Source: a virus
IMG/VR virus record: IMGVR_UViG_3300031419_000010
Span: 46,871-110,870 of that record
Reading direction: 5' to 3' (one strand)
Length of the DNA stretch: 64,000 nucleotides
This document shows positions 40,582-55,931 of this stretch, piece after piece; positions within the stretch are counted from its first letter, which is position 1; the number at the start of each line of letters is the position of its first letter. A program made the position numbers and the translations under genes. The notes below the pieces were generated by a model, which was not told the DNA's origin, ran no database searches, and saw nothing but the letters and a program-made list of their open reading frames with translations.

Positions 40582-40649
40582 GGCATTAAAATCTGTAAAT
40601 TCGAGTTAATAGGTACAGAAAAATTAGTATTTCAAACAGGTGTTATTCT

Positions 40650-48686: not shown

Positions 48687-50348
48687 ATGTTTAGGTATGT
48701 TATGGATACTTTTATCATTAAGAATCCTGCGTATCAAGAGCATTTCACAGTCGAATGGGTTCGAAAGAATGTTATCTTTGCGTGTCCGTACGATGGCCCG
48801 GAAGATCGCGAGTGGGAATTTAGAGAACAAGTTTCCACCTTCTTCTGGCACATTGTGCATTGCACACTTTATAACAGCAAGTTTAAAAACGTTAAGCGTC
48901 TTCCGTCTATTCCTTTCGCTTGGGTCTTTGGTATTCAAAAACTGCCTATGGTTTTTGGATCGGCAGGTAGCCACGGATCAAGTTCAAGATACTCGGAAAA
49001 ATCGAGAACGAAGTTTTCACGCGCACTAGAATGGCTAAAAGAAAATGTTCTGGATGTGTCAGGCTATAAATATGGCGCAGCGGGATCGGCGTGTCGTGAG
49101 TTCAGGATCAAACGTGCGGTATTTGATGGCATGTATCCGTACTCTCCGAAAACGCCGGAAGAAATCTTTGGGAAAGTAAGATATTGCAGTCCAAACTTTT
49201 TGCGAAATACTCCAGTGGGAAAAACCTTAGCTGATATTCTTGAAAGGAAATCGGTTGAGGCGTTGGGTAAACCTTCGCATGATTTTGATTCTCTTGATCG
49301 CAATCGTGATCGCGAAGTCAGAAAACTTTACAAGGAAGTTTTAGATAAACAAGATCCTCTTTCGATTACACTGCTTCCTGTTGTGGAAGAGTTGAGTCGA
49401 TTGAGTAAGTTCACCAGCGCTCAAGCAAAGGCCCGTCATCGTTTGGTGTTTTCAAACACAATGGGAATCTTAGCAGGCAACTTTTCTTGCCATAGCGTTG
49501 AGGAAATGAAAATTTCTTATCTGCCAACTTATCGTGTTAGTCCGGTAGGCGGTCGTCTTTATGAATGTGGCGGCGGTTTTCAAAACTTCCCTCGCAGTCT
49601 AAAAGAGCGTTGCCATATTCGCGGGTACAACCACGACATGCGAAGCAGTCAGCTAAACATTTTGAAGATGGAATTTGATCGCAACAATATTCGTTGCAGT
49701 TCAATCCAAAACTACAAAAGCGTTGCAGACTTTGGTGAACCTTATGGCTTGTCGAAAGACGATACAAAGGTTTGCTTTTATGCGACGGTGTTTAGTATAG
49801 GTCAGGCACTGAATGCAAAATCTTGTTGGCACTCTGAACCTCTGCGCGTTATTGCGAAATCAAAACGCACTGAGTGTATTCACCGCGCCGCAAAACAGTT
49901 GGGTAAAAAGTATCGTGACTCTTCAATGATTCCGCCTGTGATAAAGCTGGCGAGAAAGTTGATGGTGAAGGAAACCAATCGCATTCGCGACATTTGGAAC
50001 AAAGAGAACGAAACTTTAACACTGGCGCTTGAAGAACTTTGCGAAATTTATATTTCCAAAGCTCGTAAGGCGAAGGAAAAAAGTGTGCTCACAAATGCAG
50101 TAGGCGTACGATTTGCCTGGCCGACAGAAGAGATAGATTACAAAATCCGAAAACAGATTTTGAGTCACATGATCACGGGAATCGAAACGAAACTTTTGTT
50201 CGATATGATTTTGTCGAATGATGTTCGTGTTTATTCTTTTGAGCACGACGGCGCACTGATTAGCAGAGCGAAGGTATCGTCAGAGGAAATCGAATTTGTT
50301 CGAAAACCTTTCGATGAAACTTCCTATCAGTATTTCAAAAATCTGTAA
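48687..50348 (+). CDS. minimal family-A polymerase-like protein (TV-Pol-like), no exonuclease domain
   Basis: GGRLY..GGFQNFP, NHDMRSSQL (motif A), TKVCFYAT (motif B), FEHDG (motif C). Confidence 0.7.
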   Translation: MFRYVMDTFIIKNPAYQEHFTVEWVRKNVIFACPYDGPEDREWEFREQVSTFFWHIVHCTLYNSKFKNVKRLPSIPFAWVFGIQKLPMVFGSAGSHGSSSRYSEKSRTKFSRALEWLKENVLDVSGYKYGAAGSACREFRIKRAVFDGMYPYSPKTPEEIFGKVRYCSPNFLRNTPVGKTLADILERKSVEALGKPSHDFDSLDRNRDREVRKLYKEVLDKQDPLSITLLPVVEELSRLSKFTSAQAKARHRLVFSNTMGILAGNFSCHSVEEMKISYLPTYRVSPVGGRLYECGGGFQNFPRSLKERCHIRGYNHDMRSSQLNILKMEFDRNNIRCSSIQNYKSVADFGEPYGLSKDDTKVCFYATVFSIGQALNAKSCWHSEPLRVIAKSKRTECIHRAAKQLGKKYRDSSMIPPVIKLARKLMVKETNRIRDIWNKENETLTLALEELCEIYISKARKAKEKSVLTNAVGVRFAWPTEEIDYKIRKQILSHMITGIETKLLFDMILSNDVRVYSFEHDGALISRAKVSSEEIEFVRKPFDETSYQYFKNL

Positions 50349-50385: not shown

Positions 50386-51456
50386 GTGCCGAAGAAAAAC
50401 GCACGGACGGAAAAGTTGCCAGCGGGGTTGGGTGAGTTGTTTGAAGCGGATCGTCCGGAAGAATCCAAAGTGAAACTTCCGAAAAAGATCAACGGCATTC
50501 GACTCAAACCCAAACCGAAGCCTAAAGCAAAAAAGAAGTCCGGGAATGAAGTGCCAATTGAGATCTACGAACTTGCTGCGTTGTACGAATGCTATCACCA
50601 CAACACAGTAACCGATAGTTATCGCACTTGGCCCGATATGACAATTGCAGAAGCATACAAAATCGTTTCTCAGATGAATCCGTCTGAACTCGAAAGCGTA
50701 AAACAATATGCAGCGTTATATCGAAATGACAGCGGCCTTAAATTTGAAGAGTTGCGTGAATTCCGAAACGCACTCATCGAGAAAGAAATTTCGATTGGGA
50801 TTAGCATTCCCCTGTTTATCGAACATTTCAAGATTGAACCGAACGATCCTATCATTGCCTCGTTGCTTTATACGTGGGCGTCTTATGTTAGGACGATGGT
50901 TGAACGACGCAAAAAATTAATCCCCACAAAAACTCGTCATGCTGCTACTGTGCAGGAAGGCGATTTTTGCGTTGAGATAGAGTGTAACGCGGAACAGGCC
51001 AAAGTGCTTGATCGCTATTGCTCAGTGTGGCACGGAACTTTGCTGGCGTGTCGCGACTATCTCAAATCTCTTGGCAATCGTGCGCCAAAGCGTATTGACA
51101 AAATCAGTAGCAAGCTGGCTACTCAGATTCGCAAGGAACATAACTTTGAAGATGTTCCGCGCAGTCTTGTTGTTTGTGCGTTGAATGGGTACACGCAAAA
51201 ACTAAAGTTCGATAACAACAAAGATTTTAAACGCGATCTGGATCGTTTCTACGTGAAGGACAACTTTAAACTTTTTGAAAATTCATTGACTGTCGGTAAA
51301 GCCAAAGAGATTGCTATCACAAAAATTGTTGGTGGTGAGCGTCTTGATCTAACTGTTCGTGGAATTTCTTTTGCCCGTACTTCTCCGTTGGTTTACACCG
51401 TGACGATTCAGTACGATAAAATGGAATTGCTTGAGCAACAGTACGGTACGGATTAA
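50386..51456 (+). CDS. protein with C-terminal TnpB-like REC/WED region lacking RuvC
   Basis: IECNAEQAKVL..., TQIRKEH..EDVPRSLV..AL, FKL..NSLTVGK..I, VRGISFAR...YTVTI. Confidence 0.55.
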   Translation: MPKKNARTEKLPAGLGELFEADRPEESKVKLPKKINGIRLKPKPKPKAKKKSGNEVPIEIYELAALYECYHHNTVTDSYRTWPDMTIAEAYKIVSQMNPSELESVKQYAALYRNDSGLKFEELREFRNALIEKEISIGISIPLFIEHFKIEPNDPIIASLLYTWASYVRTMVERRKKLIPTKTRHAATVQEGDFCVEIECNAEQAKVLDRYCSVWHGTLLACRDYLKSLGNRAPKRIDKISSKLATQIRKEHNFEDVPRSLVVCALNGYTQKLKFDNNKDFKRDLDRFYVKDNFKLFENSLTVGKAKEIAITKIVGGERLDLTVRGISFARTSPLVYTVTIQYDKMELLEQQYGTD

Positions 51457-53774: not shown

Positions 53775-54341
53775 GTGTTAGTTATTTTCGATGCAGACGA
53801 TACAGGACTGATTACACATCCTGTCATTCTCAACATTTTGAAACAACGTCACGGTCAAGATCTTCCTGTTGACCAGTATCTGACAAAGGACAATGCAGGC
53901 GAAGGTTTTATTGGCCTGATGGAAGATGGCGAGTTTCTCCCGCTGTGTAATATTCGCGAAGGTTTCATTGAGTGCGTTGATGCAGTGATTGCTGCCGGGC
54001 ATGAAGTTGGAATCGGAACACATCGCGGCTATCATCGAATGGGTATGATTCATACTCGCTCTATCTTTGGTGCGCACTGGAAAAAATTCACACGTAACTT
54101 TTTCATTGATCCCTACGTGCATCCGTGCAAGATGAGTTTCATTGAAGAAAGCATTGATGAAGATTTTATCATTGTCGATGATCGGCCCAACTTTAACTCT
54201 GAGTACGATCAGGATGATCCTCGCATTATTCTTTTTGATCAGCCGTGGAACAAAAATCTGCCGTTTGTGCGCGTGGATAAGTTCGATGAAAACTTTCTTA
54301 AAATTCTTTTTGAAAGAATCGAATTTATCTCTAATTTATAA
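53775..54341 (+). CDS. HAD-family 5'(3')-deoxyribonucleotidase-like protein
   Basis: IFDADDT, GTHR, IVDDRP, FDQPWN. Confidence 0.8.
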   Translation: MLVIFDADDTGLITHPVILNILKQRHGQDLPVDQYLTKDNAGEGFIGLMEDGEFLPLCNIREGFIECVDAVIAAGHEVGIGTHRGYHRMGMIHTRSIFGAHWKKFTRNFFIDPYVHPCKMSFIEESIDEDFIIVDDRPNFNSEYDQDDPRIILFDQPWNKNLPFVRVDKFDENFLKILFERIEFISNL

Positions 54342-54342
54342 A

Positions 54343-54623
54343 CTCAAGCCGCAAGGACTTTTGAGAAGAGTTCGTTGTGGCAGAACGAGCCTGCGTTGGT
54401 TTCAAGCATGTAACCAAATGACAGTAAGACTCGTTCGGTGTGTATCCCACTATCGCACCTTAAATCGTGGGGGAGTTTTTCCAATAGGGATACCCGACAG
54501 CCTTGCGGGGAAACTCCAAAGCGATTTGAAAAGATTGTTTTGGAGTTTCAAATATCCTGATAACTATAAACTGCAACAACATTACCCTGATGGGAACAGA
54601 CTTCGCAATCTGTTCCCTTTTTT
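54343..54623 (+). ncRNA. candidate structured ncRNA
   Basis: Nested helices with G-U pairs and a GAAA tetraloop; ends in a terminator. Confidence 0.6.
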
Positions 54624-54624
54624 T
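54592..54624 (+). terminator. intrinsic terminator
   Basis: GGGAACAGA-CTTCGCAA-TCTGTTCCC followed by T7. Confidence 0.85.
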
Positions 54625-54680
54625 GTCCAAAATCTGTAAATAGTCGGTATACGCTTTCTATCTCTACTGGAAAATATATC

Positions 54681-55931
54681 ATGGCTAAAGTTTCAAAACG
54701 CACCATTGGCGACGACGATACCAAAAAGAAAAAGAAAAAGAAGGTTGAAGGAAAGAGCCTGAAAAAGAAAGGTTCGTCTCGCGTGTTTGAACTGGAGACA
54801 AGCAACTTCGCAAACAAGTATCGTCCGAAAAGCATTGAAGACTTTATCGGGCAAGAGCACATTCTCAAACAATACTCAGGTTGGTTGAAGACTAAAAACT
54901 TCCCCAGCGTTATTCTGATCAGCGGTCATTTGGGATCAGGCAAAACAACGTTTGCGGGAATCATCGGTAAGACGGTGAACTGCGAAACGTTAAACGCGTG
55001 TGGTGAGTGTGGTTCGTGTAAAGCGTTTGATGGTGGAATGCACCCGGACATTCTGACTTACGATATGGGTAACGACAGCGGTAAAGTTGACGGCGCTCAA
55101 AAGATTATTGAAAGCAGTACGCTGTCACCGCTTTATAATCGTCGCGTTTATATTCTGGATGAAGCGCACCTGATGACAACTCAAGCGGAATCTAAATTCC
55201 TTATCCCGCTTGAGAATCCGGCACCGCACACTATCTGGATTCTGGTATCAACCGATCCGCAGAAAATCAAAAGCACGATTCTTTCACGCTGCGTTAAGCT
55301 GCCAATCAATCCGATTGATCCGGAAGTGATTGCAGGCCGCATTCGTTCTATCGCGAAAGCAGAAAAGATTCTGCCGAAAGATAAAAAGGAACTGAAAGCC
55401 GCAGACGAAGCGATCAACACAATCGCAGAATACAGTGGCGGTCAGTTGCGTGGTGCAATCGGTTTATTCCAAACTGTTTACAGCGCGGTCAAAGGCGGCG
55501 AAACGTTTAACAATGATCTTGTGCTGGATATGGCGGCATCCGATCCGGACGTTAACTTAGGCGACATGGCTGTAGGCTTCACGCAAAGTTATTTGCAGAT
55601 GGACTTGATTGAAACCGTACGTTTCATTCGTCAGGCGCAAGACATTCGCGGCCTGCTGCATAAAACTCGTTGGCTGCTGCATTACCTGATGGGTAACATC
55701 GCAAAAACAAATAAGTTCCAAACTGCTGAACTTCGCAAGTTCTTAGACGAATCCAAAAAGTCTAAACTTAAAGTGAATCCGGTATCGGTGATTTATTTGC
55801 AGAAGGCGTTGTGTGATATTGAACTGGCTATCAACTCAAGCAGCATTCCAGTTGATGTTATGTTTGAAAGCACTGTCACTGCGCTGATGGCAGATATTTT
55901 TTCTGGTAAACTTTCGGTAGATTTGAAATAA
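54681..55931 (+). CDS. dnaX: DNA polymerase III gamma/tau-like clamp loader subunit
   Basis: KYRP, GQEH, GHLGSGKTT, C..ACGECGSC, LDEAH, TILSRC. Confidence 0.9.
   Translation: MAKVSKRTIGDDDTKKKKKKKVEGKSLKKKGSSRVFELETSNFANKYRPKSIEDFIGQEHILKQYSGWLKTKNFPSVILISGHLGSGKTTFAGIIGKTVNCETLNACGECGSCKAFDGGMHPDILTYDMGNDSGKVDGAQKIIESSTLSPLYNRRVYILDEAHLMTTQAESKFLIPLENPAPHTIWILVSTDPQKIKSTILSRCVKLPINPIDPEVIAGRIRSIAKAEKILPKDKKELKAADEAINTIAEYSGGQLRGAIGLFQTVYSAVKGGETFNNDLVLDMAASDPDVNLGDMAVGFTQSYLQMDLIETVRFIRQAQDIRGLLHKTRWLLHYLMGNIAKTNKFQTAELRKFLDESKKSKLKVNPVSVIYLQKALCDIELAINSSSIPVDVMFESTVTALMADIFSGKLSVDLK

Follow-up and report, generated by a model that had tools for sequence, protein, structure and literature searches.

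Orphan structured RNAs of phages and bacteria include the stable RNAs C and D of phage T4 and the phage-associated GOLLD and ROOL RNAs. To our knowledge, few non-coding RNAs of jumbo phages have been characterised. H-type pseudoknots serve as aptamers or operators in the preQ1-I and SAM-II riboswitches and in the gene 32 leader of phage T4, and CsrB/RsmB-type RNAs are protein sponges in Erwinia and Pectobacterium, hosts that use RsmA/RsmB. In the omega RNA of TnpB (the ISDra2 reRNA), a long-range pseudoknot joins guide-adjacent bases to the 5′ region, and the RNA scaffold is held by the WED plus RuvC of TnpB (PMC10097598).

The locus described here lies in a jumbo phage from phyllosphere (leaf-surface) metagenomes. 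All positions are those of the window, the whole 64,000-nucleotide stretch of its DNA that was analysed. A gap of 339 nt, which contains the RNA element, separates the stop of a 188-amino-acid (aa) gene (53775-54341) from the clamp-loader gene (54681-55931), whose product matches Pfam DNA_pol3_delta2 (E = 4e-29). The 188-aa protein (PHROG 16292) had no match in Pfam; its HAD motif I (FDADDTG) and late IVDDRP motif fit the label of nucleotidase given to it in the initial annotation. That annotation had also proposed a structured non-coding RNA (ncRNA) of ~280 nt between the nucleotidase and dnaX, and the region is indeed non-coding and strongly structured on the + strand. The minimum free energy (MFE) of 54343-54623 on this strand is -102.4 kcal/mol (z = -6.39, with none of 200 shuffles as good), compared to a weaker fold on the - strand (z = -3.40). 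The element was assigned to the + strand because G-U pairs are frequent in this orientation, in addition to the weaker fold of the other strand. In relatives, the z of the element was -5.08 (Alexandra) and -6.86 (Yoloswag).

Searching the whole window with Rfam 15 (4227 models) at gathering thresholds gave no matches. With permissive filters (E ≤ 10), the element region returned scores at chance level only, the best being Yfr19 (23 bits vs 70) and a miRNA (19 vs 92), and covariance models of the IS605-orfB and RAGATH-18 type did not match at E ≤ 10. ARAGORN found neither a tRNA nor a tmRNA in the 64-kb window, in agreement with the initial annotation, which had seen no tRNA and no recognisable tmRNA. 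HDV-like and pistol-like ribozymes and an RsmB-like sponge were considered against general background and rejected on topology and on the absence of Rfam matches. The element at 54343-54623 is a structured RNA element of a family that is absent from Rfam.

Like T4 RNAs C and D, GOLLD and ROOL, the RNA is phage-encoded, non-coding, conserved in structure and organised as a discrete, terminator-ended unit with no assigned function. In contrast to GOLLD and ROOL, it is much smaller, lies outside any tRNA cluster and has no Rfam similarity, and unlike these orphan RNAs it is restricted to one jumbo-phage clade of Enterobacterales. Its pseudoknot shares with preQ1-I, SAM-II and the T4 gene 32 leader the topology S1-L1-S2-L2-S1′-L3-S2′, in which L1 and L2 are short and L3 is rich in A and U, and like the T4 leader it adjoins a replication gene. 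However, no Rfam match was found, the pseudoknot sits inside a much larger RNA, and a terminator and a candidate promoter precede the next gene. Repeated GGA-containing motifs (GGGGAG, UUGGAGU) recall CsrB/RsmB, but there are two to three of them, mostly in stems rather than hairpin loops, and no such family matched. With TnpB omega RNAs it has in common a pseudoknot, a size in the range of 100-250 nt, an occurrence in jumbo phages and a variable patch near the 3′ end. It differs from them in that its pseudoknot (54437-54471, the only covarying one) is local and of H-type, it is present in a single copy, no transposon ends were noticed, and it occurs in phages in which the TnpB-like protein discussed below was not detected.

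Secondary structure and covariation

Covariation, named as a check in the initial annotation, was clearly present in the helices, the pseudoknot and the 3′ hairpins. Across the five sequences of the window's clade, the structure model has 91.7% of cells paired and 11 compensatory pairs. The covariation set was compiled without the metagenomic relatives P0002-P0020 (clamp loader 45-88% identical).

The element begins with a 5′ hairpin, P1 (54348-54381, +; GCCGCAAGGACUUUU paired with AAGAGUUCG-UUGUGGC, with one bulged G), which is part of both the MFE and the centroid folds. It is paired in 95.6% of cells in five sequences, with six pairs varying on one side and one on both, and a P1-like hairpin can be seen by eye in Yoloswag. 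This local hairpin takes up the sequence CCGCAAGG, which the initial annotation had paired with CCTTGCGG as a closing helix around three inner helices. That helix is a perfect 8-bp complement in the window only; among the five closest sequences it is 68% paired, five of its eight pairs break and none covary. Nor did the proposed helix GTATCCC/GGGATAC hold up, as it needs a 3-nt insertion unique to the window (four of the five rows have gaps), and its CCC is part of pseudoknot stem S2.

The P2 domain (54383-54436, +) follows, and consists of the helix GAACGAG/CUCGUUC, an inner hairpin UUGGUU/AACCAA and a conserved junction, GACAGUAAGAC, which includes UAAGAC (54425-54430). Its closing helix, recognised in the initial annotation (GAACGAG/CTCGTTC, 54383/54430), is 89% paired with two compensatory pairs, and reads GGCGAG/CTCGCC in relatives. 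The inner helix, also predicted there (TTGGTT/AACCAA), exists but is kept only in part (63% of cells paired). The junction word TAAGAC is almost invariant (20/21 family members).

Directly 3′ of P2 is an H-type pseudoknot (54437-54471, +) that was absent from the initial model. Stem S1 pairs GGUGUG (54437-42) with CGCACC (54454-59), stem S2 pairs CCCAC (54446-50) with GUGGG (54467-71), and the loops are UAU, UAU and UUAAAUC. Both stems are 100% paired in the window's clade, with three compensatory pairs. An automatic search recovered the S1-L1-S2-L2-S1′-L3-S2′ arrangement in 20 of the 21 members, and in Yen9-02 it was identified by eye. Each stem has ~9 different sequences across the family, and the observed score was reached by 0-1 of 300 shuffles. 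For S2, for example, CCCAC/GUGGG is replaced by CCCGC/GCGGG, CCCUC/GAGGG, CCGUGCU/AGCACGG or CCUGCACU/AGUGCAGG. The family-wide covariation of the pseudoknot was tabulated with a separate script because the alignment of the family covariance model, R1, shifts S2 by one column between clades.

The 3′ half of the element contains two further hairpin regions. Px (54476-54510, +) is 88% paired across the family, with four of its six pairs compensatory. Its inner hairpin (CCCG, 54493-96, with CGGG, 54506-09; loop ACAGCCUUG) is 87% paired across the family, with all five pairs compensatory, and 100% paired in the window's clade. Py (54511-54548, +; AAACUCCAAAGCGAUUUG-AAAA-GAUUGUUUUGGAGUUU), a hairpin picked out in the initial annotation, is the best-conserved helix of the family. 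It is 98.4% paired in 21 sequences, with many G-U pairs and six compensatory pairs in its distal stem, while its base, ACUCCAA/UUGGAGU, is invariant. Taken as one set, Px with its inner hairpin and Py have 94% pairing in the 21 sequences, and 15 of 26 pairs are changed on both sides. None of 500 shuffles reached this level, and slid controls gave 30-50% pairing. The base of Py is, with UAAGAC and GGGGAG, one of the invariant blocks of the family.

In the alignment, the linker 3′ of Py (54549-54591, +) has two conserved blocks, AACUAUAAA (54562-70) and UUACCCUG (54582-89), on either side of a variable patch (54571-81). Within the patch, CAACAAC at 54574-54580 is replaced by TTTTACT in contigs of runs X22 and X24; six of seven bases are changed and the flanks unchanged, in contigs that are otherwise 88-94% identical. 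In the window, nine of ten bases of the patch are complementary to the 3′ strand of P1 (54372-81), which we read as chance because this complementarity is missing from JA13 and UViG_3300014590. No significant match to the patch was found in the 110-kb genome fragment.

Distribution, coding potential and transcription unit

By blastn, the intergenic region is 71-73% identical in the Dickeya phages JA11, JA13, JA29 and JA33 (Salmondvirus), where the matching region is unannotated DNA flanked by homologous genes. A fourth lineage with the element, UViG_3300014590, was present in IMG/VR. A tblastn search with the clamp loader led to Yoloswag, pEa_SNUABM_5, Alexandra, AD1 and the Yersinia phage fHe-Yen9-02 (~50-54% protein identity), all of which have gaps or small ORFs 5′ of the clamp-loader gene. 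A search by nhmmer and a motif scan (TAAGAC..GGGGAG..CTCCAA..TTGGAG), with IMG/VR genomes included, placed the RNA core in all of these and gave 21 distinct sequences, from Salmondvirus, Yoloswagvirus, Alexandravirus/AD1, fHe-Yen9-02 and several phages known from metagenomes. The site is constant, between a HAD-like gene of ~190 aa on the 5′ side and the clamp-loader gene on the 3′ side. Covariance model R1 scored 66-140 bits on the 21 distinct sequences and found one copy per genome.

Outside this clade, R1 found nothing in 60 loci from phages with clamp loaders ≤40% identical. A search of bacterial genomes for the pattern GGGGAG..ACTCCAA..TTGGAGT yielded 99 stretches from unrelated phyla. 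The 80 scored with R1 all reached ≤25 bits (true members at least 66 bits), and so no host-encoded homologue was found in these pattern-selected bacterial contigs. A viral scan for AAACTCCAAAG..CTTTGGAGTT gave only a few unrelated terminator-like hairpins (L010, L011, L013, L014), and a metagenome scan with the clamp-loader alignment gave distant cellular DnaX loci only. In the Alcaligenes phage Afa-NA1 (L023:1960-2320), the position of the RNA is taken by ~8 direct repeats of AACAACTGATACATGAG-like words, which look like iterons or repeated promoters.

DNA identity is higher in the RNA region (72%) than in the neighbouring upstream protein gene (61%). Conservation above that of the protein gene is indicative of selection, and implies a function. 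The significance of the RNA lies in its being large, with a pseudoknot supported by covariation, and in its keeping one site across genera whose clamp loaders are only ~50% identical. Cultivable phages of Erwinia amylovora, Dickeya solani and Yersinia enterocolitica are among the carriers; several are in biocontrol development, and in such phages the RNA could be deleted and assayed directly. The covariance model and alignment could also seed an Rfam family.

An open reading frame of 165 aa (54142-54639, TTG start) overlaps the RNA. In the initial annotation, translation and conservation of this frame were named as evidence that would count against an ncRNA. The frame does span the region in all four close relatives. 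However, substitutions in the element are spread over the codon positions (19/26/32) without codon-position bias, and indels, 1, 2, 4, 5, 6 and 7 nt long, put the relatives in different frames; the flanking genes have a third-position substitution bias and only 3n indels. The frame also overlaps the HAD-like gene out of frame, matches no protein family, and has translations that agree only where the DNA is identical. Judged by these patterns, the 165-aa frame is non-coding, and the likelihood of its being a real gene is negligible. Two hypothetical-protein CDSs in GenBank overlap the RNA as well, Yoloswag gp204 (L019:1249-1413) and fHe-Yen9-02 106c (L022:1770-1976). Both are probably mis-annotations rather than genes, and the GenBank annotation can be corrected to that extent.

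A candidate promoter element, a CTAATTT box (54331-54337, +), overlaps the last codons of the HAD-like gene just 5′ of its stop (54339-54341). The motif had been pointed out in the initial annotation and is conserved in all clades. It is invariant in the window's clade, although this conservation is not independent because the box there falls within the tail of a coding sequence. Alexandra, AD1, Yoloswag and the other clades have a CTAATT box too, placed 3′ of the stop codon in DNA that does not code. Alexandra-type phages additionally have a small hairpin and a terminator between the box and the RNA, with a TGTACA motif after the terminator. Two other CTAATTT sites in the genome (55974 and 62002) directly follow terminators and precede gene starts by 38-42 nt. 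With 6 copies in the genome vs ~22 expected, the word is not over-represented.

At its 3′ end, the element has an intrinsic terminator, located by a terminator scan (54592-54624, +), with a 9-bp GC-rich stem (GGGAACAGA/UCUGUUCCC) followed by U7. A terminator had been proposed here, and its stem covaries, being different in sequence yet still paired in JA13, JA29 and UViG_3300014590. The 3′ boundary of the RNA is marked by a promoter-like motif of the clamp-loader gene, AAAATCTGTAAAT (54629-54641, +), which lies outside the RNA. The extended form, AAAATCTGTAAAT(N5-6)GTATA, recurs at 40591, 50341, 54632 and 58042 (+), ~45 nt before gene starts and, in two of the four copies, directly after terminators. 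To judge from sequence, these recurrences are a phage promoter class. A CTGTAAA-type motif precedes the clamp loader in every relative. In Alexandra, AD1, Yen9-02 and Yoloswag, an ORF of ~65 aa with its own CTGTAAA-type motif is inserted between the RNA and the clamp loader (L020:2060-2257, L021:2068-2265, L022:2042-2239 and L019:~2049-2251, respectively); the window's clade does not have it.

Yoloswag, Alexandra, AD1 and Yen9-02 also have an intrinsic terminator between the upstream gene and the RNA, in contrast to the window's clade, where none was found between the HAD-like gene and the RNA. Taken together, the terminators, the CTAATTT box and the separate clamp-loader motif favour an independent transcript of ~280 nt. 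The independent transcription proposed in the initial annotation is thus supported indirectly, by the box, the terminator, the clamp-loader gene's own predicted promoter and the upstream terminators of other clades. RNA-level data comprise two Logan contigs, one of 196 nt (X24) and one of 153 nt (X23), which carry no ends, strand or level. The X24 metatranscriptome contig (54517-54711) crosses the terminator into the clamp-loader gene, which could reflect read-through or contaminating DNA. A possible antiterminator, a GGUUCC/GGAACC match between the RNA body and the terminator, is present in the JA phages and UViG_3300014590, and was rejected because the match is missing from the window.

Strand exchange and possible roles of the RNA

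Segment A (54470-54478, +), which consists of GGGGAG and UUU (GGAGUUU at 54472-78), has the complementary sequence to segment B (54511-17), the 5′ strand of Py, and is unpaired in the ground state. In 21 of 21 sequences, B (nnnCUCC) has two possible partners: A (GGAGnnn), which directly follows the pseudoknot on its 3′ side, and A′ (GGAGnnn, 54542-48), with which it forms Py. The GGG(G/A)G of A is invariant or nearly so in all 21. The alternative pairing of GGAGTTT (54472) with AAACTCC (54511) in the initial annotation is therefore real and conserved. The bases past GGAG co-vary between the three segments: the window has GGAGUUU/AAACUCC/GGAGUUU and Yen9-02 has GGAGUAUGCC/GGCAUACUCC/GGAGUAUGCC. 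In all sequences, Py (B:A′) is favoured over A:B by 5-16 kcal/mol, and the simplest reading of A:B is therefore a transient of co-transcriptional folding or a state stabilised by a factor. During transcription, AAACUCC (B) would pair first with GGAGUUU (A), after which A′ (GGAGUUU) would capture B in the more stable Py hairpin, leaving GGGGAG exposed beside the pseudoknot.

Segment A′ looks like a ribosome-binding site without a start codon. In Yoloswag, a second CUCCAA...UUGGAG hairpin (L019:1597-1628) sequesters the Shine-Dalgarno of gp203, and because of this hairpin we take UUGGAG to be a normal ribosome-binding word in these phages.

The reading we favour, and regard as rather probable, is that ~54345-54624 (+) is the gene for an ncRNA of ~280 nt, the representative of an undescribed structured-RNA family of one jumbo-phage clade (Salmondvirus, Yoloswagvirus, Alexandravirus, fHe-Yen9-02 and metagenomic relatives). 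Transcription would start at the CTAATTT-box promoter and end at the intrinsic terminator. Our best guess for its role is a trans-acting RNA, bound by protein or regulatory, with a conserved GGAG/CUCC/GGAG strand exchange, in which the invariant blocks UAAGAC, GGGGAG and ACUCCAA/UUGGAGU might be recognition sites. More ambitiously, and as a tentative possibility that we would put well short of probable, the RNA might be the founding member of a new phage RNA class, either a putative ribozyme or the core RNA of a ribonucleoprotein specific to phages. The pseudoknot and GGGGAG/ACUCCAA would then form its active or recognition centre, and the patch at 54571-81 an exchangeable specificity element. 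Such an RNA, in a single copy at a fixed site, would have been kept by a whole jumbo-phage lineage of plant-associated Enterobacterales. With respect to the initial annotation, its observations as a whole are partly confirmed and its interpretation partly supported. Two of its four inner helices proved wrong, and the sponge, scaffold, ribozyme or packaging RNA that it proposed are candidate roles.

Three strands competing directly 3′ of a pseudoknot resemble an aptamer with its expression platform, and the RNA is followed by a terminator and then by replication genes, with contig X24 bridging the terminator into the clamp-loader gene. These features would suit a cis-acting leader or attenuator, with the pseudoknot as sensor of a ligand or protein and the A/B/A′ exchange as the control on terminator read-through into the clamp-loader operon. 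We consider this unlikely, however, as Py has no U-tract, and A, B and A′ miss the real terminator, which is 43 nt downstream. The alternative pairing overlaps neither the terminator nor the ribosome-binding site of a downstream gene, no start codon follows A′, and no known riboswitch family was matched in Rfam. In every clade, the clamp loader is preceded by a promoter motif of its own that lies beyond the terminator, and in Alexandra, Yoloswag and Yen9-02 a different gene (the ~65-aa ORF) follows the RNA, with no terminator directly after Py. The riboswitch or attenuator reading is thus weakened, because the switch avoids the terminator and start codons and the downstream gene differs between clades. 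The consistent advantage of Py also argues against it, since with a preference of 5-16 kcal/mol the switch is not near balance unless a factor intervenes. Alternatively, the upstream operon, which would run from the promoter motif at 50341 to the terminator at 54624, could end in this element as a structured 3′ UTR, providing exonuclease protection or a 3′-UTR-derived small RNA. All genes between 50386 and 54341 run in one direction and lie close together, the window's clade has no terminator that would part the HAD-like gene from the RNA, and a long-range helix may start from the stop codon (AAACUC, 54340-45, with GAGUUU, 54473-78). That helix has almost no covariation, four other clades do have an intrinsic terminator between the upstream gene and the RNA, and the element, with its pseudoknot and invariant loops, is far more elaborate than a protective 3′ stem, which together make a 3′ UTR improbable.

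An RNA with a pseudoknot, a size close to that of an omega RNA and, flanked by conserved blocks, a hypervariable 3′ patch might be a guide, with the patch (54571-81) as its specificity segment. Its partner would be a putative nuclease-less TnpB-like protein, whose gene (50386-51456) belongs to the same operon and lies 3 kb upstream. Such a role is highly improbable. The 356-aa protein lacks RuvC and gave no sequence-level signal for a TnpB-like fold, and the local pseudoknot, the lack of any omega-RNA/IS605 match in Rfam and the lack of a significant patch match in the genome fragment also count against it. JA33, Yoloswag and SNUABM_5 have detectable members of the protein family, but BLAST and profile searches, which very divergent homologues could escape, found none in Alexandra, AD1 or Yen9-02, all of which carry the RNA. 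The link between the RNA and the putative TnpB-like protein is weak. An element acting as DNA, such as a single-strand initiation site, a cluster of origin hairpins or a protein operator, would fit the location in a replication-gene region and the invariant inverted repeat ACTCCAA...TTGGAGT at the base of Py. It too has very little likelihood, as the G-U pairs are strand-specific and the covarying pseudoknot, with the flanking candidate promoter and terminator, fits an RNA. Moreover, a scan of the window gave no GC-skew support for an origin at the RNA site, the turning point (minimum) being at ~40 kb, ~14 kb away.

In some of the relatives, the stretch from the CTAATT box to the large RNA contains a second, shorter unit (Alexandra L020:1620-1717; AD1 L021; Yoloswag L019:1075-1190; Yen9-02 L022:1625-1707), which is missing from the window's clade. 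It consists of a hairpin with the loop (A/G)GGAGUU and an intrinsic terminator. The loop is the same word as A and A′ and is complementary to B, and the unit may be a separate small RNA of ~75 nt or an attenuator.
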